Source: Geosiphon pyriformis uo1 (taxonomy: Eukaryota; Fungi; Glomeromycota). Taken from it: a stretch of 64,000 nt of DNA. Numbering within the stretch: the first letter of the stretch is position 1; each line of letters opens with the position of its first letter. Location: assembly GCA_016748015.1 (NCBI GenBank), contig JAAOMT010000128.1, positions 317,538 to 381,537 of the forward strand, written 5' to 3'. Below the pieces are notes generated by a model. It saw nothing but the letters and a program-made list of their open reading frames with translations, had not been told where the DNA came from and made no database searches. Positions 425-35,861 of this stretch are shown here, in pieces. The position numbers were made by a program, and so were the translations under genes.

Positions 425-1300
425 TGTTATGGTTTAAGAATTTAGCAAAAAGAATCATAAAAATAATACAAACTATTCAATCATAATATAGCACAGTAAT
501 AATCTTAGAAAAGTAATGATTAACATAGTAGCAAACACTATCTTGCAATAGTAGCAAGCACCAGTTCATAATAGCAGTTAACACCAACTGGTGATAGCAG
601 CAAACACCAGATTGAAATATCAAAAAGAAAGTATTACAATGTGTTTTCTCGTAGAACTACAAACATGTATATATACAGTAGTTTTAATATTGGGAAAGAA
701 TCAATCAAGTAATAAAAATCATAACTTATTAAGCAATAGATCCAATTTTATCCAACAAACTCCACTTTAAATCATATTTTCAAATTAAATATTCCAAGAA
801 ACCTTTAAATCAAAAAAAAATGAAAAAGAATATTTAAAACTGAATTATCACAACCCAAAGTATTAAGAAACTTACTTGTATTATTTATTGAATAAAACTA
901 TCATTCATCAACTGAATCTCTTGGAAGAATAATCCTTGATCAAGATTATTCACGTTATTACTAATTGATAAAAGCTTTATTGTAAGAATTAGAAAAAGTG
1001 CTAAAGACCATTAACATTTTGTGTTTCTAGATTAGAGAAACACATCAGGCAATTGCAAGGATAGTTTCAGAAAAGATCTCAGACAGTGGGTAGATTTCAG
1101 TTCAGCCTTTGAGAAGGAGTACATAAACATACACAACAATCAAGAATTGAAGAATAACTTACATTACAACATTAAAAAGAAAGCCTTCAGTATAACAGTG
1201 ACATTATCACACAAATAGAATTGAGAAACTCATGAAAGACTGATTGCAATTAAAACGAGATATCAGCAATTAAATATAACAAGAAAACCATTCCATAACA
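425..1300 (+). repeat. Element A 5' LTR (876 bp)
   Basis: Near-identical to 9178-10054. TATATATA at about 668; short ATAGCAGCAAACACCA-type repeats at about 525-610. Confidence 0.97.
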
Positions 1301-1302
1301 TT

Positions 1303-1318
1303 TGGTGAACCCTACGAG
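1303..1318 (+). promoter_or_regulatory. Primer-binding site of A (TGGTGAACCCTACGAG), possibly tRNA-Trp
   Basis: Begins with TGG 2 nt after the LTR. The complement ...CTCGTAGGGTTCACCA resembles eukaryotic tRNA-Trp 3' ends; tRNA identity is recalled, not searched. Confidence 0.75.
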
Positions 1319-1382
1319 AAAAGAAAATCAAAAAGGAAATAATAATTAGCAATAATTCATTGCTAAAAAGGAAGAGACAAAA

Positions 1383-4300
1383 GTGGTGACAAAAACCTCT
1401 AATCTTACTGTTCTTGAATTCTGCCATGCTATTTACACACAAAATCAAAGTGATCTTGGATTACCAGAAGAGTGTTGTCCAGCAGAATCTGCCCTCACTT
1501 ATTATATCAACGCCAGAATAAATTATCATATAAGAAAGGAAGAAAAACCACATGATGCAAAACTTGGATTGTATAGAGAATTATCACAATACACTACAAA
1601 AGAAGTAGCAGTAATAGCCGCAACTATTGTCAAAATTCATCGAGAAATTGAGCAATATGCCAACAAAAATTTTCTAATATCCACAGGAAACACTAGGGAA
1701 CACGCCAACAAAACCAAAGAAAATTTAGAAACTAATCAGGAAAGTAACCAGCAAAAACTAGGAACACCAGCTTAAACACCAAAGAAAACTGTCACTCAAT
1801 CAATAAAAAAACAACGTATTTATTTACTAGAAGATAAATCATACCATTTTTTACCAGAAAATAAGATACAAATTCTATTAGGAGCTGCATCATCATCAAC
1901 ATCAACTCCACAAATGCCAAAAACTCCTAGTTATACTGATAAAATTAAACAACGTAACTGGGGAGACATACCAATTACAGAAGGATATTCATCACTATTC
2001 CAAAACTCTTTTTTTCAGCCAAAATTTAGAATGGGGTTTGAAAACCGTGAAGAAAAGTCTAAATTGGAATCCAAAAAAGAGACCAGCAAAAAAACAATCA
2101 CAAGACCAGTCACTAGAACAAGCAGCCAGTCCAGAAACCAAGAAACTTGTGATCAAGAAGAAGAACTGAATATAAGGGAAGCCACCTTTAGGAACACTTA
2201 AGGAAATATCATCCCACCTCTTCTTAGACCAATAAGCCCACCAGCAGAAAATGGCAACGAAATGACCACATCATACATTACAAGACTAACAGATTTCTCA
2301 GGAGAAAAAAAAAAACCGGACGTGCACACATAGCTCAGAGAAGCACAAAAAGCCATCCAGGCAAATAACTAGAACAACCAAAGAGCAATTCAAACATTAC
2401 CTTTCTTCCTGAAAGGCACAGCCAACTCGTGGTATCAAAGCCTGGAAACAAAACCCACAAGCTTCACCAAATTTAAAAATGCACTCCTGGAGTATTTTAG
2501 CGACCCAAATGCCATAATCCAACTACAGAACAAATTCAATACTATCAAGCAAAATAGCAGTGAAACTGTCACCCAATACCTTGCTCGATTTAATTGAATT
2601 CGTTGTCAGATTGAAGCAATTGAACAAAAATATTACACTGATCCTCAGGTTTTAAATCAGTTTATTAGAGAATTAAAAAGCAGCATTTTAGGAAGAGTAC
2701 ACCCTGTCCACCCTAATTCCTTACCAGAAACCATTATGCTTGCCAGAGCCCTTGAATCGGCTGAGAAAAAAGCTAACCATAGTCAAATGGTTAACATGGT
2801 AATAGAGGAAAATAAGACAGAAACATTAGAGAAAAGAGTAACGCAATTAGGGGAGGAACTCTCTAAGAAAATAGAAAGTTACCTCATCCCAGATCCGAGA
2901 AGAAATACATACCAACCACCCCAAAAACGCAGCCAGGAAGTCAGCGACAGTTGAAATAATTGCTCGTCATGCCAGGAATTCAGAACAAAAATGCATGCCT
3001 GCCATTTTTGCAAATGCATAGGACATTTGATTAGTCAATGTCGAACACGAATGATGCAGAAAGCACGTGAAAATAATTACTACATGCCACCCCAAATGCC
3101 CAGAAACTAGTACATGCCAATACCACGCCAATATCCCACCACATATCAAAATCAAGGAGCTTATCAGCAACAGTCCATGATAGCCAACCCAAATTGGCAT
3201 CCCAAGGCCTGAAATCAGCCTATGTGGAACCAGAATGTGTTGGTCCAGAGGAATCCAAACCACGCCAAAACCAATCAGCAAACCAATCCAAACTACCAAA
3301 ATTATCAACAAACTTATCTTAATATACCAGAAAATCTGATTATCAGAAATAATGATGGTAGAAACATAAACAGAACCAAGAATTCCTCCAACAAATTAAG
3401 CCAAACAATACCACCAGCAGTTGCCACCAAAGATAGCAGCCTCGCAGCTATTTTTTTTTTTGAATTAAAAGAAAACAAGGCTATGTTCAATGGAGCAGCA
3501 TTGGACAAAAAGTGCCCAATCACTGCTATGTATACGAAAGCCACTGTAAACAATACTCCAATCAAATTTATTTTAGACAGCGGATCCGCTGGAAGCATCG
3601 TAATGCTTCAACTAGTAAACCAACTGGGTTTCAAAGTTGATCATGCCACGACATCCCAAATCATAACAGCTGATGGAAGTACAAAGCTGCCTCATGGCAA
3701 AATCGACTCATTTCCTTTCGAAATTAACAGCATAGTAATACCTACAAAAGTATTAGTAATGGATGCTACACAATATCAAGCATTAGTAGAGAATGACTGG
3801 CTAACAAAAGCCAATGCCACCTTAGACTGGACCACCCAAGAGCTTCTAATCAATTATAATTGCCACCAGGCCAAAATTCCAGCCACCTGTGGCCACTTCC
3901 AAAAACCCAGCACCAACCAAAGACCTACCTTCGAATTTAAGGAAAATCCAACACTACCAGCCATTGAAACCTATCAGCTCTCTTGAGTTGATAACCAAAA
4001 AACAAGACTACCAGTCATACCAATGTGGACCAGCGAAGAAAGATCCGAATGGAACCAGGTAAGTTTATGAAAAAACCACCAGCAATACAGACCAAAACTA
4101 GAATGCTCAGTTTGTAAGAAGAAACTCTCGTCTATGACTGCGTGCAGCACACTAAATAAAGACCCAAGAAACCCCACCCACTACTATTGTAACCATTGTA
4201 ACAATGAAAAATACGGTTACCCAGAAAGACACGAAAAATAGAATGAGGAACTGTGCCTCACTTGTGGAGAACCGTTACCAAAAGGATGTGACTGGAACAA

Positions 4301-7085
4301 CATACCAGACAGAGGAGGAATGTGTGACACAACTTGCCAATACACAATCCTTATCTGTGACTGGGTAAAAGGAGGAATGCCATTCGAAGCAGCATTCAAC
4401 AGAGTGTTAAAAAGACTATAGCACTACCCACATGACGAGGACGAGTTGTACAACACCGCACAAGCCAAAGTAAGAGAAGGAACCGCCAAAGAAATACGAT
4501 GTTGAAAAGAGTCAGCTAAAGTAGCCAACAAAGTCGCCAGTTACAACATGTTCGACCCAGTAGACGAATTTCAGAACTACTACCAACAACTATGCCCCAC
4601 TTGACAAGAGCAAGAACAATACCTCGCCCAAATCAACACTTACTTCTGCAAAAACTGTCTTATCCCATGCCAAAATCAGTGTTGTGAAGAGTGTCAAGAC
4701 GAAAGGGGCTTAGAAAGAAAAATGGAAATTGAGAATCAGCAGTCTCAAAATCAATCAATAAATCAACAAGACTCATCTGACAGTCACAAGTCAGAAAAAT
4801 TTGTAGCTTATACCGACCTAGAACAGATGACTGACATCCGATATTTTGACAACGGGCACTTAGGAATAATACCCAAAAGAGCCTATCTAACCGATGCTGG
4901 ATTCGATCTACGTTATCTAGAAGACCAATCCACAATGTTACCATCCAAGAGCATCATCAAAATTGACCTAAAAACAGTAGTTGAAATTCCGCTAGGAATA
5001 ATGGTTCAAATAGCATCATGATCAAGCCTTGCAAAAAAAAGAATAAGCATTCAAGGAGGAGTAATTGATTCTGGATACACTGGAAATTTGCTACAAAACA
5101 ATTCAGAAAAGCCTTATACCATTGAATCTAAGGAAAAAATTGCACAAGCAATTTTCCTACCATTGGTAAAAATTGGGAAATTTGTGCCAGTAGAAAATCA
5201 TGAGGAATTGTCACAAACAACGAGAGAAACTTTTGGTTTCGGATTGACAGGAAAAGGAATTGAAGCGAATTTCGCTAAAACAATAGAGGAAAAAGGCAAA
5301 GTAATTAAAAATGAACAGCCCATTATGCTCCTACCATATGAAAAATCAGAAATAAGAATAAAAAGGACAATTAAAGAAAAAGACCTAATATTTGAGCCCT
5401 ACCCAGAAATCTGCCAACAGTTTCTTATAAGACTTACTAACTTTTTTATTCCAGCTGATAAAGCTCAATGGATAAAAATTTCTATTGCAAACACCACAGA
5501 AGAACCCGTCTATATTCCGGAAGATACCATCATTGGATACCTTGAAATGGAGCTAGAAAACATGTCAACACTACAAGAAATTCTAAATTTCTCAGAAATT
5601 GCCCTCTACTGTGAACTCACTTCAATAAATTGGCAACAACTGTTAGAATGCTATCAATTTACGCCAGAAGAATTGGCCAAATTAAACATTGGAACAATGG
5701 ATCCTGACCAACAGTAACAATTAAAAGCATTAATTTTAAAATACTCTGATATATTTTCATGAAATGGCAAATTTGGAAGAACCAACTTGGTTCAACACCA
5801 AATTCCCACTGGAGACATCAGATCTAAAAAACAATGCGCTTACTGTATCCCACCAATGGAGCATAATTTTATCAGAGAAGAAGTCCAAAGCATGTTGGAA
5901 AAAAGAATAATACAACCATCAATGAGCCCATGGTCCTCACCAGTTGTTTTAGTAAGGAAAAAGAACAGAAAAATTAGATTTTGTGTTGACTATCACAAAC
6001 TAAACAGCAAAACAACCAAAGACTCATACCCAATACCATTAATTGATGAAATCTTCGACATTTTTGGAGAAGCAAAATGGTTTTCTACACTGGACTTGAC
6101 CAGTGGGTACTGGCAAGTGGAAATGGACCCAAAGGACAGACATAAAACAGCATTCACAACACAAAATGGCAATTATGAGTTCAATGTAATGCCATTTGGA
6201 TTAACAAACACTCCCACAACATTTCAAAGACTAATGGATGTAATTTACTCCAGAATCCTGTGGCAATCCATTGTTGTCTACTTGGATGATACAAATGTTT
6301 TCTCGTCAAAATTCATGGATCATTTCCAATATTTACAACAAGTTTTTGAGAAATTGAGACATGCTGGACTTAAACTAAATCTAGAAAAATGTTTTTTTGG
6401 GAAAAATGAGCTAGCATTTTTAGGACACATAGTTGGAAAAGATGGAATAAAACCAGATCCATCAAAAATAGACAAAGTGAAAAATTTTCCAGTACCTTGA
6501 AATGTTTCAGAAGTTAGAAGCTTTTTAGGACTTGCATCTTACTACCGCCACTTTGTAGAAAACTTTTCAAACATCGCCAAATCTCTTAATTATCTATTAT
6601 CCAAAAATGTGAAGTTTGAATGGACTGAAGCACAACAAAAAGCTTTTGAGTACCTTAGACGAAAGCTCATTGAATCACCAATAATGATCTATCCAAATTT
6701 CAACAAGAAATTCATTTTGGCCACAGATGTCTCTGAAACTGGACTTGGAGCCATTCTGTCACAAAAAGATAATAATAAAAGAGAATGTGTAATTGCTTAT
6801 GCCAGCAGAAGTCTCAGTACGATAGAACAAAACTACGCAGCACATAAACTTGAATGCTTAGCAGTAGTCTGGAGTTGTGTTCACTTTGACACATATTTAT
6901 AGTACCAACCCTTTGAGATTATGACAGATTATAGAGGTCTGGTCTGGTTAAATAACAAGAAAGCACTAAAAGAAAAATACGTCAGATGGTCACAAATATT
7001 AGCACCATACAATTATATTATCAAATACAAAGAAGGTACCAAAAATGCTAATGCTAACTGTTTGTCAAGAATAAGACACACATAA
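1383..7085 (+). pseudogene. gag-pol: A ORF1 polyprotein: N-domain, capsid, CCHC, protease, Cys-rich region, dUTPase, dUTPase-like domain, RT, RNase H; many nonsense codons
   Basis: Fragments 1383, 1914, 2736, 3222, 4722, 5088, 5787 and 6609 all lie in one frame. Motifs: CHFCKCIGHLISQC, LDSGS, AGFDL/GVIDSGYTG/KIAQAIF, RFCVDY, MPFGL, YLDD, TDVS, ECLAVVW. The true start codon is uncertain. Confidence 0.93.
4860..5255 (+). pseudogene. dut: dUTPase domain in element A
   Basis: Motifs DAGFDL, IAS*SSLA (likely CGA>TGA), GVIDSGYTG, KIAQ and RETFGFGLTG match dUTPase motifs I-V. Confidence 0.93.
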
Positions 7086-7114
7086 AAATCACCAACCCAC
7101 CCGCCACAACAACA

Positions 7115-8411
7115 ATGAACAACCACCTTTATAAAAACCTTAGCCAATACTTGGAAACACTACAAATAGATGAAGAAATGCCAGTAAAAAAGCTAATTAA
7201 GCTCCAAAAATTAGCAAAACCCTATTTCATCCAAAATCACATACTTTATTACCGGAATCAACAAAATCCAGATAATCCATTAAGAGTTATAACCACGGAT
7301 GAAAAAGAAACTATCTTATTTAACATGCACTCAGATATTCATTCAGGCCACTTTGGAAAAACAGCAACCATCCAACGTGCAACTAGCTGTTACTATTGGC
7401 CAAAAATAAGTTCAGATATAATCCAATACATAAGAAATTGTGACCCATGCCAACAAAGAAAAGGAGCAAAAACAACGGAATTATTAAGACCAATAAAAGT
7501 TAGACAGCCATTTGACAGAATCAGAATTGATTTAGTTGGACCCTTACCAATAACAACAAGAAACAACTGTTATATTGCAGTAGCTATGAACTATCTCACC
7601 AAATGGCCAGAAGCTAGAGCTATTAAAACAGCTGATGCTATTTCCATAGCTCAATTCGTACATGAAGACTTAATTTGCTGACATGGATATTCACAAGAAT
7701 TGCTATCAGATTAAGGCACACACTTTGTAAACAGCACCTTAAAAGAACTTAGCCAAAAATTTGGAATCAAATGACTACTGTCATCACCATACCACCCTCA
7801 AACAAATGGATTAGTTGAAAGATTTAATCACACATTATGCAAATCACTGGCGAAAATTAGTAACAAACATGAAAAAGAATAGGATTTGTTCATACCAGCA
7901 GTACTACTAGTATATAGAACAGTAAAACAAGATACTACACAATTCACACCATTTGAACTAGTTTATGGAAGAAAAGCCACATTACCAGTTGAACTTACTA
8001 TCCCAACTTATCCAAGTAACACTATCACGGAAGCAACATTCCAGGAAACACTACTTAGAAGAACATACGAATTAATAAGAACTTTAGAAAACAAAAGAAA
8101 AAAAGCAGCACAAAATATTGAACAATCACAAGAACAACAAAAAGTGAGACATGATAACCAGTTACCAAATAATATAATTAGCTACAAAATTGGAGANNNN
8201 NNNNNNNNNNNNNNNNGCATACAAGCTAAGACTAGATGATAAAATATTAAGAAAAGCAGCACATGGTAACCGGCTGAAATTTTATTACAGTAAACCAGTA
8301 ATAACAACAAAAACACCCAGAATTGGAACACAATTACCTTTAATTCTACCAGAACAAATTCCACGAGATTTAGAACCAATAGTTTTAATTGAACATTATT
8401 CAAAAAGATAA
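7115..8411 (+). pseudogene. int: A integrase, separate ORF with its own ATG; contains an assembly gap
   Basis: HHCC (H-x6-H...CDPC), IDLVGP, YHPQTNGLVERFN, TPFELVYGR. Different frame from RNase H, which stops at 7083-7085. Confidence 0.92.
8197..8216. other. Assembly gap (20 N) in the integrase C-terminal domain
   Basis: Run of N. Comparison with the integrases of B and C suggests about 100 nt (the KWDGPF segment) are missing. Confidence 0.95.
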
Positions 8412-8495: not shown

Positions 8496-9164
8496 ATGAT
8501 ACTTATTCCAGAAAACATCAACAATATAACTCAACAATTAGTTGAAAGCTTACAACAATTAAAATCCGATCTGGAAATCACAGTTAATAGCTCCAAGATA
8601 ACATACATAAAAAGAACAATAGAAAATCCAAAAACAAGAAAAGAACATAATTTTGAACCATATAATATTGCCAAATATAACAACAAATTTATCAGCAAAG
8701 TTATTGAAAAATTAGAGATAGCATTGGGCAATACATTAATAATGGAAGAAATAGAAATAAGTGAATTAACACCAGACACATTTAGCAACTTGAAAACAAA
8801 ATTTCCAATTAATTACTATTATTATCAACTAGGAAAGCACTTAAACATACAAACATTATACTTAAAAGACTTAACTAGAGTGTTTAACAAAACAACTATC
8901 CAACTATTAGAACCTTTTATTGGAAAAACCAACACTACATTTTATTCAAAAACAGTTTACAGAATTTTCAAAGCATTTGAAAACTGTCACAAATTATTGT
9001 TGGACCCAACCATAAACATAATAACAACCAACAGTATTAGATGACTTACCAATTCGCAATTTCAAGAATTACAACAACAAATTAATAACACAGTATTGAA
9101 TCACTATAGTAACTTAAAATTTAATGAAGAAATTAACTTCGATTTCGACGGAGCTCAATCTTGA
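8496..9164 (+). pseudogene. A ORF3, unknown protein of about 222 aa (one internal TGA at 9042)
   Basis: Homologous to the ORFs at the same position in B, C, E and H. Ends FDFDGAQS* overlapping the PPT. Confidence 0.85.
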
Positions 9165-9177: not shown

Positions 9178-10054
9178 TGTTACAGTTTAAGAATTTAGCA
9201 AAAAGAATCATAAAAATAATACAAACTATTCAATCATAATATAGCACAGTAATAATCTTAGAAAAGTAATGATTAACATAGTAGCAAACACTATCTTGCA
9301 ATAGTAGCAAGCACCAGTTCATAATAGCAGTTAACACCAACTGGTGATAGCAGCAAACACCAGATTGAAATATCAAAAAGAAAGTATTACAATGTGTTTT
9401 CTCGTAGAACTACAAACATGTATATATACAGTAGTTTTAATATTGGGAAAAAAAACAATCAAGTAATAAAAATCATAACTTATCAAGCAATAGATCCAAT
9501 TTTATCCAACAAACTCCACTTTAAATCATATTTTCAAATTAAATATTCCAAGAAACCTTTAAATCAAAAAAAAATGAAAAAGAATATTTAAAACTGAATT
9601 ATTATAACTCAAAGTATTAAGAAACTTACTTGTATTATTTATTGAATGAAACTATCATTCATCAACTGAATCTCTTGGAAGAATAATCCTTGATCAAGAT
9701 TATTCACGTTATTACTAATTGATAAAAGCTTTATTGTAAGAATTAGAAAAAGTGCTAAAGACCATTAACATTTTGTGTTTCTAGATTAGAGAAACATATT
9801 AGGCAATTGCAAGAATAGCCTCAGAGAAGACCCCAAACAGTGGGTAGATTTCAGTTCAGCCTTTGAGAAGGAGTACATAAACACACACAACAATCAGGAA
9901 TTGAAGAATAACTTACATCGCAACATTAAAAAGAAAGCCTTTAGTATAACAGTGACATTATCACACAAATAGAATTGAGGAACTCACGAAAGACTAATTG
10001 CAATTAAAACGAGATATCAGCAATTAAATATAACAAGAAAACCATTCCATAACA
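9178..10054 (+). repeat. Element A 3' LTR
   Basis: Direct repeat of 425-1300, followed by TSD CTGC. Confidence 0.97.
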
Positions 10055-11156: not shown

Positions 11157-11790
11157 TGTTATGAGTTAAAATAACAAGTTAACAGATAGCAAAAAAAACA
11201 GAATTATAGAATAATAAAAATAATTAAAGAAAAAATTACAATAAAAGAGTAAATTAAATATGTAAAATTCAATATATATAATTAGTCTAATAAAAATTAC
11301 AGTTATAAATCTTTTTTGGGAATCTAAAAATAGAGAAATAGTCTGTAATTATTAATAAAATAATATTGTTGCTATTATTTTATATCTCAATTTAGCAATT
11401 CTTAGAATCAATAACAAGTATTATTGTGTTTTTTAATCTTTTTTTATTTAATAAATTACAAGAATAAGCAATTGTTTTTTATGTTAATTTTAATAATACA
11501 AATAAAATAAAAAAGATAAAATATGTAAATACCAATAAGTAATTTTTTATTCTAAGATAATTAAATACTTAAAAGTAAAAAAAAATATAAAAAAAAGTAA
11601 TTAATAGTGGATTTTATTTTGTTACTTTGATTATATTATTATTTTAATTATATTTTTTTACAGTTAAAGAATTTATTGCTTATATAATTATTAAAAATAG
11701 TCAATAATTAGATTAGTAATTAGGTCAATAATCAAATTAATAGTTAAATCAATAATTAGGTTAATAATTAGATTATTAATTAGATTATTA
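11157..11790 (-). repeat. Degenerate family-F LTR (left part) split by the LINE; remainder at about 39045-39097
   Basis: TGTTATGAGTTAAAATAACAAG matches the LTR start at 51356. The 12-mer GGTCAATGATCA-type array resumes at 39045 (ACTATCTAAG...GAGTTTCAAC). Confidence 0.75.
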
Positions 11791-11921
11791 TTTTTTTATT
11801 AACATTTAACGAGTGAAGTCCAAACACTGCCTAGTGCAATACATCATACAAATGATCTAAACTAGGTGTGAATCATGCATTATCTACATGTGACCAGCCA
11901 TTTGGACCAATCAGGACAACA

Positions 11922-15428: not shown

Positions 15429-16523
15429 TGTTACTTGAATAGAAAAACCAATCCAAAGTTATGAAGAAACATAACCAAAACGTGACATAAAACAGAATAA
15501 CGCGCAATAACATTGAATAATGCGTTATAATGTTGGATAACGTGTTATAACGCAGAATAATACAGAATAGTGTGCAATAATGTAGGAAAATGTGTTATAA
15601 TGCAGGATAACACAGAATAACATGTAATAACATCAGATAATGTGTTATAACATAGGATAACTAGCAATAACGTAGAAAAACAAAGCAATAACAGAAACAA
15701 CAAAGCAATAGCTAGCAATAGTGAGACAATTGAAAGCAATCCTGTAAAACCAAAAGAATGTATAAAAGCAAGTAGTTATAGAAGTGAGAAAAAACAGAGG
15801 GAGAAGAAAAAATAGATACAAACCTCTAGACAAGAAATTAAAATATTTATACCCTTTCATCCTTTATTATCTTCCTTATTTCATCTTCTAAAATAAACCA
15901 ATTATTAAAAGAAATCAGAATCACAAATTCATGTTCTCAAACTTTGTGAAATTTATGTGAATTAACCCTTGTCTCATACCTCTGTTCTAGAACAGATGCT
16001 CTTAGCATAACTGCCTCGAACCTATTAATGATTTGGACCAATCACTCTTGATCACGGCAATTAATGATACTAATTTATTTTTTCTCTCTTTTCTTTTTTT
16101 TTTTTTTCTTTTTTTTTTTTTTCTGTCTTATTTTTTGTGGAGCGGCAACATAGTAAAATCAACTGTCTGGAAATAGACTTTGTGATAGCCTGGTAAAAAA
16201 GGGAAGCTCCCCCTAAGTTTTGGATATTAACATTATCTTGTTAGCTTACCAGAAGGGTGAAAAGACAATGCCAGACTCTAACGACTGCGCTCGTTAGTTC
16301 GGAAAAGAAAGCTCACATTTACAAAAAAATGTTGCAATCAATGAAAAACAAACTCTGTGCCTTATAACCAAAGAACTCAACGGATAAAATTTACATCCAG
16401 AAATAGACCTTCAAAGACTGATAATCAAGACTAAGCCAACAGAATTACACGGAAGACATATCATCAATAATTGAGAGCACTAAACATTACCATTTTTTAT
16501 ACTCACCAAGTTTACCCATAACA
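15429..16523 (+). repeat. Element B 5' LTR (about 1095 bp) with a ~10-bp ATAAC-based tandem array at about 15480-15690
   Basis: TGTTAC...TAACA; matches 34766-35861; TATAAA at about 15760. Confidence 0.96.
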
Positions 16524-16869: not shown

Positions 16870-17752
16870 TGTTACAGGTGATTATTTCTGCTGTTGAATT
16901 AAATAACAAACCCGTAACTTGGTGCTCAAAAGCTATTTCTGTTGAGGCTATTCTGCAGGTGCTGTATCTGAAGGTTTTAATGGATCTGAAGGTTTTGGTT
17001 AAGTCTTTTGTATAATAGACAGAAATTTAATAATGTCGATAATAGAGATATTTTCCAAGAGTTTTCCCAATTTCTTTTTCAGCATGGTGGCCAGATTTAG
17101 TCTGGCAGTTGTGCCTTTCTAGTAAGCTATCCGATAATATATAAAAATCCTACCCGTATTTCTGGATCTTTTACCAGACTATTCTTGATGTCAATAACTC
17201 AGCACTTAATCATTTATCAATTAGTATATAACAACAAATCAAAATAAAATAAAGAAAAAGAAATAAAAGAAAATAAAGAAAGCAAAGAAATAAGCCAAGA
17301 TGATTTGCAGATTAGTATCCCATCAATAGCCGTGATCAAGAGCTATTGTTCCAGTGTGGTCAAATATCAATTACTATCAACATAAAGGGTTGATAGTGGG
17401 AAGTGGATGGAGATATAAAATAATTATTTATTAGATGATTGCATTTTTAGGCTAAGGATTTTGTGGTATCGATTCTGTCTTTTCTGTTTCTAATACTACT
17501 GCTATATATACATAATTGGAATTCCTCAATTCCTTGATTCTTCACAATAGGAATCCTGGAATTTCTGGAATTCTGCGATTCCTTTGAGAGGAATCCTGGA
17601 ATTCTGGAATCCTGCAATTCCTCATTGGGAATCCTGAAATTCTTGGAATCCTGCAATTCCTGAGAGGAATCCTGGAATTCCATATTTATTACGCTTACTT
17701 CTGATTGGCTAATAACTATGCTAATATATTTCCTATATTTCTATGAGTAATA
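16870..17752 (-). repeat. Element C 3' LTR with GGAATCCT/GGAATTCC tandem array (about 17515-17680)
   Basis: Direct repeat of 26167-27049. Confidence 0.96.
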
Positions 17753-17765
17753 TTATTCCCTCCTT

Positions 17766-18395
17766 TTAATATTGAGCTCCATCAAAATCTAACTCATGTA
17801 ATTCCCCCTCTTGAAGTATTTCCTGGATTTTGTTTTCGAGAATTACTTGTGTTATTTGGGTCTGTAATTCTTCAAATTGAGCATTGATGATTTTTCCCAA
17901 TTGATTACTGGTAACCCTATCCATTGCTTTATTGAGCAATATTTCTGGTTTATCTTGAAATGCTGTGTGTATTTGATATATGGCTCGGGCTTGTGTGGAT
18001 AAGTTGTTCTTTCCCACAAAATGTTCTAATTGTTGTAGTATTCTTTTGTCAAATAATCACTTTGTTTTATCTGTATATAGATTCTGGATATTTATGTGTT
18101 GTCCCAAGTAAAAATAACAATAGTTTCGTGAAAATTGTTATATCCACCAATTCCAAGTTTCTTTAGTCAACTCTTGATATAGTAACTTTTTTGTCGATTC
18201 TTTTATTGCTAATTTTACTTTTGCTATAATTTTGTCCACAGTATTTTCAGTTTTCTTCTGTATTCTGAGTTGCAATGTCTTTCTAGTATCTTGATATCAA
18301 ATGGTTTGTTGATTGATTGTAATCTCTATTTCCTGGTGTTGGATTAATTAAAAGAGTTGTTGTGCTAGTAAGTGAATGTTGTCTGTAATTTCCAT
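17766..18395 (-). pseudogene. C ORF3 (about 209 aa, in-frame stops only)
   Basis: MEITDNIHLLAQQLF...YFYLGQHINIQNLY...FVGKNNL...QFEELQ...DFDGAQY* aligns with A ORF3. Confidence 0.85.
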
Positions 18396-18449
18396 TTTTC
18401 TGATATTTTCTGTCACATCTATCATGTCTTTATATATTCTTTTGATGGA

Positions 18450-19832
18450 TCAATTTAACATATTATTGTTGATAGTAATGATTGGTTCCAGATCTCGTGA
18501 AATCTCATCTGGTTGGACTAGTATTCTTTGTACTCCTAATTGTGGAATATTACTGGTAGATGATAGTGTAATATTGTAATATGGTTTTAGTTGATCTCCA
18601 TGTGCTGCTTTGGTTAAAATTTTGTTATCCAATCTTAATTTGTAAGCTCCATTTTCTAGAATTTCTTCTATGTAAAATGGTCCATCCCATTTGGGGTCAA
18701 ATTTTCCACTCCATTGTTTTTCTGCTTTGGTACGATGTAGTAATACTTTGTCTCCGATCTTGAATTCAACTGGTTTGTCTGATAGTTGACTATCGTGTCT
18801 TTCTTTTTGTGTTTCTTGTGACTTTTGGATATTATCAGCTGCTCTTCTTTGTTTGTTTTCCAATGTTTTCATTAAGTCATATGTTCTTTTCAGCAATGTT
18901 TCTTGAAAATTTTCCTCTGTTATTGGTTCAGCTGGATATGTATTAATTTCTCTCTCTACTAGTAATATTGCTATTCTTTCATATACTAATTCAAATAGTG
19001 TTGCTTGTGTAGTATCTTGTTTCATTGTCTGATAAGCAAATAGTACTGATGGTATGAACAAATCCCAATTGTTCTGGTTTTCTTGGCTGAGCTTGGCTAT
19101 TGCTTCACACAATGTTCTGTTGAATCTTTCTACTAATCCATTGGTTTGTGGATGGTATGGTGATGATAGTGGTCTCTTAATTCCGAATCTTTGGCTCAAT
19201 TCTGTTAATGTTCTGTTCACAAAATGAGTTCCTTGGTCTGATAATAATTCTTTTGGACATCCATGTCAACAAATCAAATCCTGATGAATGAATTCGGCAA
19301 TGGATTCTGCATCTGCTCTTTGAATTGCTTTCGCCTCTGGCCATTTAGTGAGATAGTCCATTACTACTGCTATGTATTTGTTTACTCTGCTGGTGATTAT
19401 TAATGGTCCCACTAAATCAATTCCCATACAGTCAAATGGTTGTCCCACTTTGATTGGTCTTAATGATTCACTGGGTCTTGTTCCTTCTCTTCACTGACAA
19501 GCATCACAATTTTGAACATATTGAATGATGTCTGGGTACATTGATGGCCAATAGTATCTTTTTCTAGTCCTTTCCATGGTTGCTTCTTTGTGAAAATGTC
19601 CTGCTGTTGGATTTGAATGCATATTGAATAATATTGTCTCTTTTTCTGGCTCCATAATTACTCTGGTTGGTTAATCTAGATCCCTTCTATTTTTTCGATA
19701 AAGTATATTTTGGTAAGTGATAAAATATTTTGATTGTTGTTTGATACTTCTTCATTCTGTATGAAATAAATTCTCCTTGAACTGTTGAGTGTTTAGATAA
19801 TGTTGCAATTGTTAATATTTTTGTATGTTCAT
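18450..19832 (-). pseudogene. int: C integrase, downstream of the RNase H stop
   Basis: HHCC, GIDLVGP, YHPQTNGLVERFN, KWDGPF, RDLEPII. ATG at 19832; RNase H TAA at 19896-19898. Confidence 0.92.
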
Positions 19833-19895
19833 CTTTTGTTGTATTTTTCCATTGGTATTGTTCTAGTTTTATTATATTTTTGGGTTGAAATGTTC

Positions 19896-22800
19896 TTAGA
19901 TTTGTCTTATTCGCGATAAACCATCAGCATTTTCGTTGTTTTTTTCCTTTTTGTAATGTATAGTATAATTGTATGGTGTGAGTGCCCTTTTCTATCTTGA
20001 CTGTCTTCTATCTCCAAATTCTTGTTTTTGAAGTGATATTAATCCCTTGTGATCTGTGTATACTTCAAACTTCTGGCTCAAGTATTCTTTCCATTTCATG
20101 ACGGCCCAGTATATTGCTAAGTGTTCTTGTTCCGGTGTTCTATAGTTCTTTTCAGCTGGTGTTAAACCTCTGCTGGCATATGCTACTGGATGTTCTCTGC
20201 CGTTCAGTTTTCTCTAAGATAATACTGCTCCCAATGCTTGGCTGGATGCATCAGTGGTGATAATGAATGGTTTGCTGTAATCTGGATAGATCAGTATTAG
20301 AGCTTGGATGAGCTTTTTCCTCAGAATATCAAAAGCTTTTTGTTGACTTTCTGTCCATTCATATTTCACATTTTTGTTTTGTAGTTGATTAAGTGGCTGC
20401 GCTATCTTGGATAAAATGACAATAGTAGCTGGCAAATTCCAAGAATGATTTCAGTTCTGTTATATTGGTCGGCACTGAAAAGTTCTTTACTATCTCTATT
20501 TTCTCTGGATCTGTTTTGATGCCGTCTTTGCTGACTATGTGTCCCAAGAATTTGAGTTCCGTTTTGCCAAAGAAGCATTTTATTGCATTTAACTTTAGTC
20601 CTGCTCTTCTTAGTCTTTTGAACACTTGTTGAAGATAATGAAAATGATCATCAAACGTCTTTGAGAATACATTAGTGTCATCCAAATATACAACTACTGA
20701 TTTCCACAATAAGCCAGTATAAACGATTTCCATTAGCTGTTAGAAAGTTACTGGGGCATTGGTTAAGCCGAATGGCATCACTTCAAATTCGAAATTCTCT
20801 TCTCTAGTAGTAAATGCTGTCTTTTCTTTGTCAGCTAAATTCATGGCTACTTGCCAGTAACCACTGTCCAAATCTAATGTAAAGAATCATTTGTTCCCAC
20901 CAAACGCATCAAATAATTCCTGTATTTGTGGAGTTAGATAACTGTCTCCATGAGTTACACCATTGAGTTTCCTGTAGTCTACACAAAACCGGATTTTTCC
21001 ATTTTTCTTATAGACGAGTACTACTGGTGACAACTATGGGCTCATTGATAATTGAATTAGCCCGTTGTCAAGCATTCTGTTTATCTCTTGACGAATAATC
21101 TCGTGGCTGGCTGGTGGCACTCTGTATGCTCTTTGTTTGATTGGCATTGCATCTCCAGTTTTGATCTGATACTGAATGATGTCAGTTCAGCCAAATTCAT
21201 TTTCACTGGCAAAGATGTCATTAAAATTGTTGAGTAACATCTTGAGCTGCATACATTGGAGTGGATCTAAGTTTCCCATGTTCATTTGTTCCAATTGTTC
21301 TGATTGGAGCAAATTACATTCGTCTTGTCCATAGATTGTCTGTGATGTGATGTCAACATATTCACAAAGTTGTAAAAAGTCTGGAATGGAGTTTGGTGGT
21401 TGGTCTTCTATTTCTGTGGTTAGATATCTGATGGTGGTTCCTTCTGGTATGTTGATGACATTACCAGTGTTGTTGTAGATGGAAATTTTTATGCTGCTAT
21501 AGCTTTTGGCTAGTATGTGGAGATTGATCAACCCAATCTCTCCTGATTCACAAAGGGTTGCTTCTGCTTCAAAAATCTGTTCTTGCTCCTTTTTCTTTTT
21601 TTTTATTGCTAACATGTACTGGCTATATGGTGGAATGGAAATAGCTTGACCAGTTGAGATAATTTCTCCTTGGCCAACAATTTCTTCTTCTGCCATGTTA
21701 ACTGGTACATCTATTCTACCTGTGGATCCGAATCCTTGTATTCCTCTCACCATTATTTCTAATTCCTCCCTCTTTCTCACTGATACTAACTGAGCTATTC
21801 TAACCAGAGGCAGGAATATTGCCTGTGCTATCTTTTCATTGGGCTTTATTACATAGGCCTTTTCTGAGTCATTTTGTAGCATAGTGATAATATTTCCTAC
21901 ATATTTTGTATCAATTATTCCTCTTCTTATATTAATCTCTCTTTTCGCTAAACTACTCCTAGATGCTAATTGAACTATTGTTGTTGCCGAAATTTCTAAT
22001 GCTATTTTCAGATTAATGCAAGTGTGTGAATGCGGTTCTAATTTGATGGCATTTTTTTTCTGGATATCTCAGATCAAACTCTGCATTAGTATCATGCACA
22101 TGTTCTGGTATAATACCTTCCCCATTGTTACTATACTATTTCAACTCTTGTTCCTTGGAGAGATCTGATAGTGCAATGTATTGTTCATAGTTTACATCAG
22201 GTTTTGAATCTGAGTCTGAATCATTTTTGTCGTCATTGCCAATTTAAACAGAGCTTAAACCGTTGTTATTGTCATTATTGTCGGAATTTGAATTGTGATT
22301 GATCGGCGATTCTGATTCTGATGCGCAGCTGCTGATTGGTTTTTCTTCTTCAGGGATTGAGTAAATCATGCGTGGTGGTGGATTGTAAATGAGGTCACAC
22401 TTATTACAATACTGGACATCACAGGGAATTAGGCAGTGTTGACATAGTCGAGCATTTAACTGCTCTAACCGTTGTTTTTGTTCTTCCCTTGTGGATGCTA
22501 ATTCTTGGTAGTGTTCGTAGAATTGTTCTGGATCCAGGAGGTTTATGATGAGTTCTGCATCCCAGTCAAGCTCTAAAGGTTCTGGGGGGTTGTCTTTAAT
22601 CGTTTTTATTTCTTCTGGCATTGCCTCTTCGATTTTGGCAAGTGCTATTCACCAAATTTCATCATCGTCATGTAGACAACTGTCCAGTTACTGCACGGCT
22701 CTTCTCCAGGCTGTTTTTATTGGGGTTCTTTTCCTTACCCAGTCGCTTATTAGAATTGTGTATTAACACGATACGTCACATGTTCCTCTATATCCTGGAA

Positions 22801-26166: not shown

Positions 26167-27049
26167 TGTTACAGGTGATTATTTCTGCTGTTGAATTAAA
26201 TAACAAACCCGTAACTTGGTGCTCAAAAGCTACTTCCATTGAAGCTGTTCTGCAGGTATTGTATCTGAAGATTTTGATGGATCTGAAGGTTTTGGTTGAG
26301 TTTTTTGTATAATGGACAGAGATTCAATAGTGTCAATAGTAGAGATATTTTCCAAGAGTTTTCCCAATTTCTTTTTCAGCATAGTGGCCAGATTTAGTTT
26401 GGCAGTCGTGCCCTTCTGGTAAGCTATCCAATAATATATAAAAATTCTATCTGTATTTCTGGGTCTTTTACCAGGCTATCTTTGACGTCAATAATTCAGT
26501 GCTTAATCGTTTATTAATTAGTATATAACAACAAATCAAAATAAAATAAAAAAAAATAAATAAAAAAAAATAAAGAAAGCAAAGAAATAAGCCAAGACAA
26601 TTTGCAGATTAGTATCCTGTCAATAGCCATGATCAAGAGCTATTGTTCTAGCATGGTCAAGTATCAATTACTATCAACATGAAGGGTTGATAGTGAGAAG
26701 TGGATGGAGATATAAAATAATTATTTATTGAATGATTGCGTTTCTAGGCTAAGGATTCTGTGGTATCGATTCTGTCTTTTTTGTTTCTAACACTACTGCT
26801 ATATATACATAATTGGGATTCCTCAATTCCTCAATTCTTTACGATAAGAATTCTGGAATTCCTGGAATCCTGTGATTCCTTTGAGAGGAATCCTGAAATT
26901 CTGGAATCCTGCAATTCCTTATTGGGAATTCTGAAATTCCTGGAATCTTGCAATTCCTGAGAGGAATCCTAGAATTTCACATTTACTATGCTTACTTCTG
27001 ATTGGCTAATAATTATGCTAATATATTTTCTATATTTCTATAAGTAACA
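26167..27049 (-). repeat. Element C 5' LTR
   Basis: TG...CA ends. CCAAT (about 27001-27005) and TATATATA (about 26800) on the minus strand. Confidence 0.96.
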
Positions 27050-30000: not shown

Positions 30001-32566
30001 GACCCAGACACATTTCAGAACCAATATCAGGAATTGGCCCTGACCTGCGAGAAACAGGAGCAAAGATTGGCTGATTTGAATACCAAACTATGCAATTACT
30101 GTTTGATCCCCTGTCACTTCCAGTACTGTGATGAATGTGATCTCATGTTCAATCCACTTCCAAGAATACTGTTTCCAATCACCGAACTACCTGAACCCAA
30201 AGAAGAAGTATTGATTACCAAAGACATGTTATTTCAAGATCCAACTGAGAATACTGAAACAGAACAGTATCTCGCGTATCCCGATCTCTCCAAAGAACTA
30301 GAGCTAAAATGGTACAGTAACAACGAGGAAGGAATCTGCCCCAAAAGAGCACATGACACCAATGCTGGTTTCGACCTATGATACTCCAGACAATTACCCA
30401 TCATTATAGCCCCACATTCCCTCATAAAAATAGATCTTAAGATAGTGTTAGAAATTCCTGTTAGTACAATGGTACAAGTTGCCTCTTAATCTAGTCTAGC
30501 CAAGAAAAGAATCGACATAAAAGGAGGAATCATCGATGCCAGTTACACAGGAAACATCATCGTAATGCTACAGAACAATTTGGACAGACCCTACAAAATA
30601 GAATCACAAGAAAAGATTGTCCAAGCTATCTTCCTACCCCTAGTCAAAATACCCCAATTAACCCCAGTAACAACCTGAGAAGAGTTAAGTCTTACTGCCC
30701 GAGGAATCAACGGGTTTGGATCAAGTGAAAGAGAAAACGTACCAGTTAATTTCATGGAGGAAGACAGTGATCAGGTAGAATTTATCCATGCTGACACCAT
30801 TATCTCCATTCCCCCATACTGACAATACATCCTCAAGGTAAATTGAAAAATCCAAGATCAAGCCTTATTATTCGAAGCCAGTCCCGAAATCTGTTCCCTA
30901 GCCAATGTTGCTAATCTATACCTACCAGCCAAAGTCCATAAACATTTCAAAATCCCCATCCACAACTCGACAGAAGATGTTATTGAAATCTCCGAAGAGA
31001 CCCTCGTCAGTTCCATATCCGCAGATAATCAGAATTCTGAAAAACTCCAGTCCATTCCAGATTTCACACAATTATTCTTATTCTGTGACATTACCTCACA
31101 AGTATAGAATTTGCCAAAAGAAAGTTACTTGTTCACACCAGAAGAGATCAATAAATTGAATTTAGGAAATTTAAGTACCCTGCAACAAATACAATTCAAA
31201 GTCTTTCTGAATCAGTATGCCAATGTCTTTGCCAGTGAAAATGAGTTCAGACACACTAACATTATGAAGCATCAGATTGATACAGGAGACGCTCGACCAA
31301 TTAAGCAATGAGCTTACCATGTACTCCCATCTGGCGATAACCTAATTAAGCAAGAAGTGCAATGGATGTTTGATAATGGCTTAATCAAAGAATTGTTAAG
31401 CCCTTGGTCCTCACCAGTAGTCTTGGTCACCAAAAAAAACGGAAAAGTGCAATTCTGCATAGATTATTGAAAACTAAATAGCGTTATGCAAGGAGATAGT
31501 TATCCCACTCCCTTCATCCAGGAAATTCTGGACAATCTAGGGAAAAAGAAATGGTTCTCATTATTAGATTTAGCAAGTGGTTACTGGCAAGTTGAAATAG
31601 ACCTCAAAGACAAAGAAAAAACAGCATTTATCACTCGAGACAGAAACTTCAAGTTTAACGTAATGTCTTTTGGACTTTGTAATGCTTCTGTCACGTTTCA
31701 ATGCCTGATGGATGTAGTATACAAAGAAATTCTTTGGAAATCAGTAGTAGTCTACCTAGATGACACAAATGTGTTCTCCAAAACATTCGAAGACTATCTG
31801 CTCCATCTGCAACAAGTTTTCGAATGTCTTTGTAGTACTGGATTGAAACTCAATCTCAAGAAGTGCTTCTTTGGAAAAACCGAGTTAAAATTTCTAGGAC
31901 ATGTAATCGGCAAAGACGGAGTTAAATCTGATCCAGATAAAGTACAAAAAGTCAAGGATTTTCCAGCCCCAATCAACCTCAGAGAATTACGAGGATTTCT
32001 AGGATTAGCAGGATATTATTGTCAATTTGTCAAAGATTTCTTGAACATCGCAAAACCACTCCATCAATTGTTGTCCAAATACATACTATACTTGTGGAAA
32101 GAAGATCAACAAAGAGCATTTGACTATCTCAAGCAGTGATTGATCATATCCCCAATTCTGATTTACCCAGATTTCACTAAACAGTTCATTGTCGCTATGG
32201 ATGCCTCGAAAAATGCTCTAAGAGCAGTCTTATCACAGATAGGACTGGACAATAGAGAACACCCAGTTGCCTATGCTAGTCACAGCACTAGCCCAGCAGA
32301 AAAGAATTACAGCACAACAGATCTGGAATGTCTCGCCATTTATTGGGCCATACAGACTTGGAAACATTATCTCAGTCAACTATTTGACCTATATACCAAC
32401 CACAAAGAACTTATTTGGTTACTTAACAATCCACAACTAGAAGGAAAATATGCAAGATGGAGTACTTATCTGCAACAATTCCCACTCAAAGTCCATTACA
32501 AGGAAGGATCCAAAAACACCAATGCCAACAGTTTGTCAAGAATGTCACAAACCTAATTCCAGACCC

Positions 32567-33934
32567 ATGGACACACTTACTTATCAACGACTACATCAGT
32601 ACCTATCGACACTACATTTCAAGGAGATATTATCTCAACAAAAACAGAGTACCATATGAAAACAAGCCCGAAATTATTTTATTCAAGACAACCAACTATA
32701 TTAACGAGAACGCCGAAACCACCCCAACCCACAACAACTAATCACGGACAGTGAAAGAAAAACTATACTATATAGTGTGCACTCAGATCCGACTGCAGAA
32801 CACTTTAACAAAGACACTACTCTCGAAAGAACACTAAACTTATACTATTGGCCAACGATGCACAAAGACATTTTCAAATACATGCTCAATTGTGATGCAT
32901 GCCAGTAAAGAGGAGGAGCAAGATCAACAGAACCACTTTGACCCATTCCAGTTGGAAATCCATTTGATAGAATTGGGATCAATTTGGTTGGACCTCTTTC
33001 AATTACATCCCAAGAAAATTACTATATTGCTGTAGCTGTAGACTATCTTACAAAATGGCCAAAAGCCAGAGCAATCCAAGTGGCTGACGCCAAAACAGTC
33101 GCCAAATTTGTGCATCAAGACCTAATTTGCCGACATGGATGTCTGAAAGAATTATTATCTGATCAGGAAACATATTTCATTAATAATACACTGACAAAAC
33201 TAAGCCAATGGTTTGGAATAAAGAGACTCTTATCATCACCATACCACCCACAAATGAATGGACTGGTAGAACGATTTAACAGAACACTGTGCAAAGCACT
33301 AGCAAAAATAAGTCATGAAAACAGACAAGAATGGAACTTATTCATACCTTCTGTACTCTTTGCATACCGAACATTGAAACAAAATACGACTCAGTTCACA
33401 CCATTCAAACTAGTCTATAGAAGAAAAGCTATGTTACCAATTGAACAAGTGATACCATCATACCCAACAGAAACAATCAATGAAAAGAATTTTGAGGCTA
33501 CCTTATACCAAAGAACGTACTAGCTAATGGAAATGTTGGAAAACAATCGAAAAACAGCAGCTGGCAATATTAGTCACGCTCAAGAACGACAAAAAGAAAG
33601 ACATGATAAACACCTATCAGAACAACCAATGGAATTCAAAATTGGAGACCAAGTACTGTTACATTGTACAAAAACTAAGAAACAGTGGAGTGAAAAGTTC
33701 GACCGAAAGTGGGACAGTCCATTCCACATACACGAAGTGTTAGGAAATGGAGCTTACAAATTACGATTGGAAGACAGGATTTTAAAGAAAGTAGTGCATA
33801 GAAATTGGTTAAAAATTTATCATGTAAAACAGGAATCATCATCATCAGTACCTCAACTAGGAACACAAATTTCATTAATTAGACCAGAAGATATACCACA
33901 AGATCTGGAACCAATCATTGTCATCAAAACATAG
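32567..33934 (+). pseudogene. int: B integrase, separate ORF 10 nt after the RNase H stop (+1 frame)
   Basis: MDTLTYQRLHQYL..., H-x6-H...CDAC, YHPQMNGLVERFN, KWDSPF, QDLEPII. Confidence 0.92.
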
Positions 33935-34014: not shown

Positions 34015-34751
34015 ATGGATCTTTCAGATCAAATTTTAAAATTATCTAAACAATTATTTAAAACAATTCAAAAATTGACATCTCAAATAGAAATAACAAT
34101 TGATAAAAAAGAGATACAGTACAAAGATAAGAGCAGGAGAGGGAAGGATGAGAGTTCAATTAGAACTAAACATTCCTTCCCCTACCCATCACCCAAAAGG
34201 CAATGTGGGAGAAAAAATTGCCTTTGGCGGAGGGGGGGGAAAAAGAAGGAGGCAAAGAACGAGAAAAAGGTTACAAAAGAAGATACTTGGTCCCCGAGCT
34301 TGAAGAAATAAAAAAAGCTTTAGCTCGTGGGACCAAACTCCCTGAAACAAGGGAGTGGACACCTGACAATGCCCAGGAATGGAAAGAAAGACTTCCTCCA
34401 GCTTATTGGTTCTACAAAATTGGAGAACAGCTTGACTTGAAAACACTATATGAAGACTTCAGCCAGAAAATGTTCAACAAAGAAGCAATACAACAAGTAG
34501 AAAAATTCATAGAAAAAAACAACCTGACCCTACATTACAAAGCAGCATACTGACTATACGCTGCCTTCTAACATTGCCCAAACGTACTACTGAATGGATC
34601 TATGAAAACCATAATGGTTAACAGCATAGGACGAATAACCAATCAACAGTTTGAAGACCTACAAAAGGCAATACTAAAGGCAACAATCGAACATTACACA
34701 AACGAAGCCACGATAACAAATACATATGGTTTCGCAGAAGCTCAATTTTAA
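34015..34751 (+). pseudogene. B ORF3 (frameshifted, probably near the G-run at about 34232)
   Basis: MDLSDQILKLSKQL...YWFYKIGEQL...FNKEAIQQVEKFIEKNNL...QFEDLQ...GFAEAQF*. Confidence 0.85.
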
Positions 34752-34765
34752 AAAGAGAGGGATAA

Positions 34766-35861
34766 TGTTACCCAAGTAAAAAAACTGATCCAAAGTTATG
34801 AAGAAATGTAACCAAAACATGACATAACACAGAATAACGCGCAATAACATTGGATAATACATTATAATGTTGGATAACATGTTATAACGCAGAATAACAC
34901 AGAATAGCACGCAATAACATAGGATAACGTGTTATAATGCAGGATAACACAGAATAATATGTAATAACATCAGATAACGTGTTATAACATAGGATAACTA
35001 GTGATAACGTAGAAAAACGAAGCAATAACAGAAACAACAAAGCAATAGCTAGTAATAGCGAAACAATTGAAAGCAATTCTGTAAAACCAAAAGAATGTAT
35101 AAAAGCAAGTAGTTATAGAAGTGAGAAAAGACAGAGGGAGAAGAAAAAATAGATACAAACCTCTAGACCAGAAATTAAAATATTCATACCCCTTCATCTT
35201 TTATTATCTTCCCTATTTCATCTCCTAAAATAAACCAATTATTAAATGAAATTAGAATCATGAATTCATGTTCTCGAACTTTGTGAAATTTACGTGAATT
35301 AACCCTTGTTTCGTATCTCCGTTCTAGAACAGATGCTCTTAGCATAACTGCCTTGAACCTATTAATAATTTGAACCAATTGCTCTTGATCACGGCAATTG
35401 ATGATACTAATTTATCTTTTCTCTCTTTTCTTTTCTTTTCTTTTCTTTTTCTTTCTTTTTCTGTCTTATTTTTTGTGAAGCGGCAACATAGTAAAATCGA
35501 CTGTCTGGAAATAGACTTCGTGATAGCCTGGTAAAAGAGGGAAGCTTCCCCTAAGTTTTGGATATTAACATTATCTTGTTAGCTTACCAAAAGGGTGAAA
35601 AGACAATGCCAGACCCTAATGACTGCATTCATTAGTTTGGAGAAGAAAGCTCACATTTATGAAAAAATGTTGCAATCGACAAAAGACAAACTCTGTGCCT
35701 TATAACCAAAGAATTCAATGGGTAAAATTTACATCCAGAAATAGACCTTTAGAGACTAATAATCAAGACTAAGCCAACAGAATTACATGGAAGATGCATC
35801 ATCAATAATTGAGAGCACCAAACATTACCATTTCCCATATCTACCAAGTTTATCCGTAACA
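34766..35861 (+). repeat. Element B 3' LTR
   Basis: Direct repeat of 15429-16523, followed by TSD GTGG. Confidence 0.96.

Follow-up and report, generated by a model that had tools for sequence, protein, structure and literature searches.

Ty3/gypsy-like retrotransposons in Geosiphon pyriformis with integrase in a reading frame of its own

A 64,000-nucleotide stretch of the Geosiphon pyriformis uo1 genome (contig JAAOMT010000128.1, positions 317,538 to 381,537, forward strand; here called the window) holds decayed long terminal repeat (LTR) retrotransposons whose integrase (IN) is encoded outside the polyprotein, in an open reading frame (ORF) with its own AUG. Ty3/gypsy elements normally carry IN inside the Pol polyprotein, from which the protease (PR) frees it. 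The lineage described here works like Ty3/gypsy except in this one standard feature. We observed the split layout directly, along with its conservation among intact relatives and a start-codon signature, and regard all three as virtually certain; the window elements likely belong to a Ty3/gypsy-type lineage of arbuscular mycorrhizal fungi. The reading favored here, to which we give a probability of roughly 0.55, is that this Ty3/gypsy-type lineage makes IN from the same RNA by a restart of translation after the polyprotein stop and packages it separately.

Five junctions between RNase H (RH) and IN occur in the window, in elements A, B, C, E and H. In each, the polyprotein ends with TAA at the same codon, three codons past an N-x-N-x-L-S/L-R/Q motif, and an intact IN homolog aligns, from residue 1, at a downstream ATG or, in element E, at an ATA. 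Element A (plus strand) has its stop at 7083..7085, a 29-nt spacer without ATG in which 27 of 29 bases are A or C (7086..7114), and an IN ORF with HHCC motif and DDE core that starts at ATG 7115 (7115..8411), where the frame across a 20-base N gap at 8197-8216 is an assumption. Element B (plus strand) has reverse transcriptase (RT) and RH at 31168..32556, ending with TAA 32554-32556, then a 10-nt spacer (32557..32566) and an IN ORF from ATG 32567 (32567..33934). On the minus strand, the stop of element C (TAA, 19898-19896) and its 63-nt spacer occupy 19833..19898; the spacer has three further in-frame stops and one out-of-frame ATG, at +43, and the IN ORF that follows from ATG 19832 (18450..19832) encodes HHCC, core and SH3-like domains and no chromodomain. 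Two older copies, also on the minus strand, repeat the pattern: element E, of the C family (46682..47967), with TAA 47967-47965, a 30-nt spacer and IN from ATA 47934, and element H, of the B family (61477..62743), with TAA 62743-62741, a 10-nt spacer and IN from ATG 62730. A preliminary description of this DNA had reported the shared stop codon, the aligned starts and these spacer lengths, all of which hold. It had counted five diverged elements; the five junctions are real, but B and H (75% identical over 2.4 kb) and C and E (71% over 4.9 kb), with shared LTR sequence within each pair, are one family each. The five therefore represent three families (A; B/H; C/E), that is, three independent junctions in three frames.

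Decay of CAA to TAA had to be excluded as the source of these stops because nearly all substitutions between paired LTRs are C>T/G>A (25 of 26, 93 of 97 and 79 of 80 for the three pairs). This divergence is seen in every dinucleotide context, most strongly at CG, and old copies fall to 12-25% GC. The earlier argument that random decay was unlikely had left this bias unweighed, although it makes CAA>TAA the commonest accident. Within the flanking coding frames, CAA has become TAA at 1 of 37 (A), 2 of 40 (B) and 2 of 34 (C) CAA codons, and the joint probability of a decay stop at the one site in A, B and C is 8e-5, so the argument itself survives. Additionally, of the 6 Gln-or-stop codons in the in-frame spacer of C, 4 are stops, whereas the flanking coding DNA has 4 stops in 43 (P ~0.001); this excess shows that the spacer is not a decayed linker.

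Intact relatives share the layout. Searching with the IN of element B gives 850 proteins at E 1e-20 (232-741 aa), and among the 120 listed homologs (392-453 aa), 98 have Met at the column of the window ATG, 4 have Met there but internally, 17 are called from a later Met, and 1 is otherwise. Named relatives come from the arbuscular mycorrhizal fungi Rhizophagus, Cetraspora and Entrophospora, and the Rhizophagus irregularis annotation holds multi-copy, intact, stand-alone INs of 394-430 aa. A DNA-level scan for IN, blind to upstream content, found 573 metagenome loci, the best 80 of which are cited here by L numbers. The RH frame stops before IN in all 46 loci with an upstream RNase H match, with no uninterrupted RH-IN frame among them, while the other 34 of the 80 lack such a match. 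All 44 motif-anchored junctions, which form 34 clusters at 80% IN identity, are split. A complementary RT-led search of long proteins, blind to IN, listed 120 proteins, 17 of them without one full RT-RH match; of the 69 with at least 49.5% identity to the RT-RH of element A, 60 lack IN, and 36 of 68 IN-less RT-led proteins end within -5 to +8 residues of the A stop. Some IN-less entries may be truncated ordinary elements, and P0312 and P0337 group with fused ones. Together, the intact relatives support the proposed tricistronic order (Gag-PR-dUTPase-RT-RH, then IN, then a third frame, ORF3) and an ancestral stop and ATG. The dUTPase in that scheme is present in the window, but across the lineage it occurs only in a minority of RT-led polyproteins; in P0314 and P0326 it follows RNase H rather than lying between PR and RT, and in the RT tree P0314 and window A/B are sisters.

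The idea that decay produced the stops, through CAA-to-TAA changes and indels, or that ribosomes pass them by readthrough or frameshifting, is hardly credible in the light of these counts. It could draw on the strong C>T hypermutation, on the in-frame junctions of C, E and the relative L003, on an in-frame UGA-CUA signal that one subclade carries elsewhere, and on one truly fused relative, P0129. Against it stand the joint decay probability and the Met conserved in most listed IN homologs. Moreover, the 44 anchored junctions fall in frames 0, 1 and 2 in 10, 16 and 18 cases, use TAA, TAG and TGA in 28, 12 and 4, and have no common 3' context, which bears out the earlier objection to any one readthrough or frameshift mechanism. 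For the lineage as a whole, the stop before IN in every RH-matched locus and every anchored junction rules out decay, readthrough and frameshift alike.

Splicing, either of RH to IN in frame or of a 5' leader to an acceptor immediately upstream of the IN AUG, is very unlikely. Three NCBI gene models (P0125, P0127 and P0132) do join RT to IN across the junction, and one spacer group is poor in AG (10 seen versus 38 expected). Yet the stretch from the last RH motif to the stop lacks a donor-like site in all 28 short-tail loci, and any GT at all occurs there in only 5; in the window, that stretch has no GT in A, C, E and H, and in B a GT overlaps its edge. No AG is conserved before the IN AUG. 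The joins in the three models also differ from one another and remove conserved RH and IN residues, as predictions that bridge a stop would.

These models belong to a small set of longer proteins with a related IN (at least 44% identity), comprising five NCBI gene models, P0132 with 64% cover counted among them, and one metagenome ORF. P0125, P0127 and P0132 skip the junction, each at a different point; P0131 runs into unrelated sequence, P0126 gave no anchor, and P0129 is a genuine fusion. A bootstrap tree of 40 INs, with fused Gypsy-type polyproteins as outgroups and, like the other trees, without named reference clades, unites 34 split sequences and P0129 in a 100/100 clade on a long stem. 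Inside this clade, the window INs join L003 (TAA, 24 nt, ATG) at 100/99. A larger quick tree places five further long-branch fused sequences within the clade. These fused relatives in or beside the clade, P0129 and the five long branches, speak against a single origin of the split, while constraining the trees to one origin gives approximately unbiased (AU) test p values of 0.81 (RT) and 0.61 (IN), which are compatible with one origin and not proof of it. Since the nearest fused sequences have short RH-IN linkers, the stop and AUG likely arose at the former protease cut. The split appears to have arisen once, in a short RH-IN linker, with stop and AUG replacing the cut.

Junction anatomy bears on how IN is made. 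Spacer length varies from -20 to ~550 nt, and all frames are represented: 7 of the 44 junctions are at most 6 nt long, 23 measure 7-100 nt and 14 exceed 100 nt, a class that includes some artefacts of broken tails. The 943- and 1026-nt spacers of L069 and L070 were rejected as such artefacts of broken RH tails, and L035, L037 and L054 are probably the same. The IN AUG has a strong context, with a purine at -3 in 60 of 66 and G at +4 in 63 of 66. Spacers of 7-100 nt contain 3 ATGs against 20.8 expected, 21 of the 23 being ATG-free, and most of them fold no better than shuffles. Toward and past the stop, ATG density falls from 31/kb in RH to 13, then to 4 in the last 30 nt and to 2/kb in the spacers. 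In ten loci the AUG lies at -20 to +2 of the stop, two of them as TAATG.

The drop in ATG across the stop fits restart at the first AUG, in the manner of LINE-1 or of the transactivator TAV of cauliflower mosaic virus (CaMV). Ribosomes would terminate at the polyprotein stop, stay on the same RNA and restart, traversing an unstructured spacer with few AUGs until they met the first strong one, as has been proposed for LINE-1 ORF2. Lineage-specific helpers might include the stop/start overlaps, a 37-nt hairpin and ACGGA repeats. Free IN could then enter particles by binding RNA or Gag-Pol, by analogy with the uptake of foamy virus Pol. Post-termination reinitiation as the route to IN stands at about even odds. 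As for the repeats, ACGGA is enriched in the unstructured 75 nt before the IN AUG of a group picked by eye (10 of 13 loci versus 0.4 expected; L001, L002, L004, L005, L007, L009, L010, L013, L014, L016, L017, L022 and L048), as are GGAC and TTTGAT.

Several observations weigh against restart. According to PMC5972666, ribosomes very rarely reinitiate after long ORFs. GTA is as scarce as ATG in the mid-length spacers (2 seen), so the depletion is not specific to start codons, and ATGs already become scarcer 30-60 nt ahead of the stop, as would also be expected if an RNA had its 5' end there. In one subclade, the spacers of six loci measure 190-550 nt, contain 2-11 ATGs and would be uncrossable by plain scanning, and overlap and long-spacer types can be close kin (L047 versus L011, 75% IN identity). 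Two 2026 poly(A) runs from the organism with L023, of which a quarter of each was covered, gave 2 and 4 reads, with 0 on the hairpin or IN start at a coverage of almost nil. The hairpin is tied to the AUG and not to the stop. Finally, termination upstream ribosome-binding sites (TURBS) lie wholly upstream of the stop and allow the AUG at -8 to +6 (PMC11921876); the stop/start overlaps of 7 relatives fall inside this range, whereas the window junctions, at +13 to +66 on the same scale, fall outside it and the hairpin lies after the stop. A TURBS also carries, ahead of the stop, a motif complementary to 18S helix 26. The RH end shows no synonymous constraint. Contigs from rhizosphere RNA (two libraries) span only pieces of IN and are uninformative on starts. 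Small basic ORFs are found between RH and IN in L079 (9483-9995) and in the spacers of L015, L029 and L042, and the 170-codon ORF of L079 ends 5 nt before the IN AUG. Similarity among long spacers extends over all three frames and so gives no evidence that the small ORFs code.

The 37-nt hairpin precedes the IN AUG in 26 of the 80 loci, with two weak variants, and is absent from 52. Its pattern is RGTG AAAGC NNAAG YG NNNN CANNGTGA NNNN CRGCY, with examples at L020:1218-1254, L024:3352-3388 and L039:4464-4500 and in 23 more loci. From hairpin end to AUG there are 0-14 nt in 23 of 24 loci measured and 32 nt in one. The 25 carrier loci checked fall into 21 clusters at 80% IN identity. In 21 aligned copies, 99% of cells are paired, 6 of 10 pairs show two-sided change, and slid controls score far below; 0 of 500 shuffles score as high, a count that is not a probability, as the structure was read from the same, related sequences. 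Rfam searches of 10 hairpin-bearing loci, with E up to 5, returned three weak matches, none at the hairpin, and the exact pattern had 0 matches in viral and prokaryote genome contigs. Since the tie to the AUG is fixed, the data suggest that the hairpin acts in IN initiation or sets an RNA 5' end. An acidic tail of 200-400 residues after RNase H is seen in the hairpin branch (L024, L027, L039, L044, L056, L070, L074 and L077; P0275, P0321, P0344 and others).

The hairpin would also allow a route independent of termination, in which ribosomes enter internally, or are positioned at the start, on full-length RNA, with the hairpin or, where it is missing, an unstructured A/C/U-rich leader recruiting the 40S subunit. 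Its fixed tie to the AUG, however far away the RH stop lies (62-199 nt in unbroken loci), its covariation, and the fast shifts of junction geometry on the tree all favor this view. We nonetheless consider it unlikely: searching the window with the hairpin model gave no convincing match (best E 0.098), most loci do without the hairpin, and close relatives (L071 and L074) have lost it. The stop/start overlaps, which recur in several branches, would moreover be needless under independent entry.

A subgenomic IN RNA is a rather improbable source. Its 5' end would lie near the end of RNase H, produced by an internal promoter or by protection or cutting at the hairpin. Such an RNA would account for the early onset of ATG depletion and would easily bypass long ATG-rich spacers, and foamy viruses offer precedents, as their Pol has its own transcript (PMC3407527) and they use an internal promoter (PMC12789967). 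On the other side, no sequence motif is common to the junction types, the last 27 RH codons show no synonymous-site constraint over 48 loci, and all five window copies keep an ATG 32 nt upstream of the stop. No RNA ends were seen, at a coverage of nil.

ORF3, the last frame before the 3' LTR, ranges from 139 to 250 aa. The window copies match the ORF3 of L003 (E 9e-8 for A, 2e-5 for B). A family of 140-150 aa follows IN in ~20 loci (e.g. L074:5455-5874), to which L003 ORF3 gives a weak profile match (probability 4.5%, E 0.009, against the 145-aa family). The family is modeled as a compact all-helical domain (predicted local distance difference test score, pLDDT, 95). No Pfam family reached the cut-off for 23 members, and Foldseek found no match at E 0.001 in PDB or BFVD; the best VIA score was Z 4.8, and Atlas matches were uninformative. 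Pfam and fold searches detected no TAV homolog. In Errantivirus-like env-bearing elements, ORF3 is the envelope glycoprotein. Speculatively, the ORF3 described here could be a transactivator or adaptor. A fuller scheme, tentative and doubtful as a whole, pictures a polycistronic RNA (Gag-Pol, optional small ORFs, IN, ORF3) that might be read by reinitiation or through the 37-nt start-positioning element, with free IN loaded into capsids through a signal of its own and ORF3 possibly helping as transactivator or adaptor; translational control would then replace the RH-IN protease cut in a deep fungal clade.

Compared with known systems, the window elements resemble Ty3/gypsy (Metaviridae, such as yeast Ty3) in their TG...CA LTRs, primer site, purine tract and PR-RT-RH-IN order; their RT and IN are closest to Gypsy-type enzymes, and among solved structures the IN profile matches Ty3 Gag-Pol best (7q5b, E 2.8e-49). 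They differ from Ty3/gypsy in the IN outside Pol with its own AUG, the extra ORF3, 4-bp target duplications and the missing chromodomain. Chromoviruses carry a chromodomain at the IN C-terminus; P0002 has none, and none is among the domains precomputed for the 120 listed IN homologs. Ginger/Polinton integrases sit in DNA transposons without RT; the IN described here does not fit that group, since in the window it is flanked by RT-RH and the 3' LTR, and in 46 loci it follows RH. Fungal Gypsy elements with a dUTPase (PosPlaTy3-5, Phanerochaete, Tuber) are described with one or two ORFs (Gag-Pol, or Gag and Pol) and share the dUTPase between PR and RT; unlike the window elements, they come with no separate IN in the part of the account available (PMC2864245).

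Among systems with comparable translation or packaging, LINE-1 ORF2 is proposed to use termination-reinitiation over a 63-nt spacer, and SART1 has a stop/start overlap (PMC5972666). Both belong to the non-LTR class, however, have RT as the downstream ORF and need no capsid uptake. Foamy virus Pol is synthesized separately from Gag and enters particles by contact with RNA (PMC3407527), but there the whole PR-RT-IN comes from its own transcript, whereas here IN alone is split off. CaMV TAV reinitiation tolerates from a few to 700 nt and several long ORFs (PMC5972666). The Caulimoviridae also resemble the window elements in a polyprotein with PR-RT-RH that ends without IN. As a family, they have no LTRs and no IN. 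The window elements retain both, so the caulimovirid likeness drawn in the preliminary description is sound as an analogy only.

Elements A, B and C each retain both LTRs (97, 91 and 91% identical) together with the other Ty3/gypsy hallmarks, namely TG...CA ends, target duplication, primer site and purine tract. On the plus strand, element A begins with a 5' LTR (425..1300; TG...CA) that adjoins a tRNA primer site (TGGT...). By translation and domains, its Gag-PR-dUTPase-RT-RNase H polyprotein occupies a single frame with scattered decay stops (1302..7085), with PR at ~3540-3890, dUTPase at ~4836-5276 and RT-RH at ~5676-7070. After IN come ORF3 (8496..9164, start approximate), homologous to that of L003 and weakly to the 140-150 aa family, and the 3' LTR (9178..10054), with the purine tract just upstream. 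Element B, also on the plus strand, has its 5' LTR at 15429..16523, a frame-broken ORF3 at 34015..34755 (approximate limits) and its 3' LTR at 34766..35861. Element C is nested in B, inserted just downstream of the B 5' LTR on the minus strand, with its 5' LTR at 26167..27049, ORF3 at 17765..18425 (approximate limits) and 3' LTR at 16870..17750. The 4-bp target duplications are CTGC for A (421-424/10055-10058) and GTGG for B (15425-15428/35862-35865), and the flanks of C are two transition changes apart. The window also contains a sixth RT-RH remnant, heavily decayed and not followed by IN (40492-41726, minus strand), long stop-free frames of further elements (11954-14860 and 36327-38971, minus strand), and 12-bp tandem repeats within AT-rich repeats common to 11664-11814 and 51871-52033. 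Among the relatives, two related branches carry an in-frame TGA followed by CTA in the interval from protease to RT, in 9 of their 10 informative loci (L011:2498-2503 and L079:7930-7935; also L012, L015, L033, L042, L058, L062 and L080), L073 having TGA-CCA instead. The TGA-CTA pair matches the UGA-CUA readthrough signal.

No LTR element with a separate IN ORF was found in the literature searched, which did not extend to Repbase reports, subscription journals or supplements. New in this work are the covarying 37-nt hairpin, the conserved all-helical ORF3 and the UGA-CUA readthrough subclade. In annotations of mycorrhizal genomes, the stand-alone "integrase core domain" genes belong to these elements, and any gene model that runs across the stop is probably mistaken. 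A compact RNA with covarying pairs, the hairpin is a candidate for a new translation element, and the lineage offers a natural test case for eukaryotic ribosome restart after a very long ORF and for IN reaching cDNA in trans. In the standard account, retroelement IN is dosed and packaged by fusion to Gag-Pol. A separate IN would need its own route into the particle, and a diverse, recently multiplying lineage without the Gag-Pol-IN fusion shows that this fusion is dispensable.

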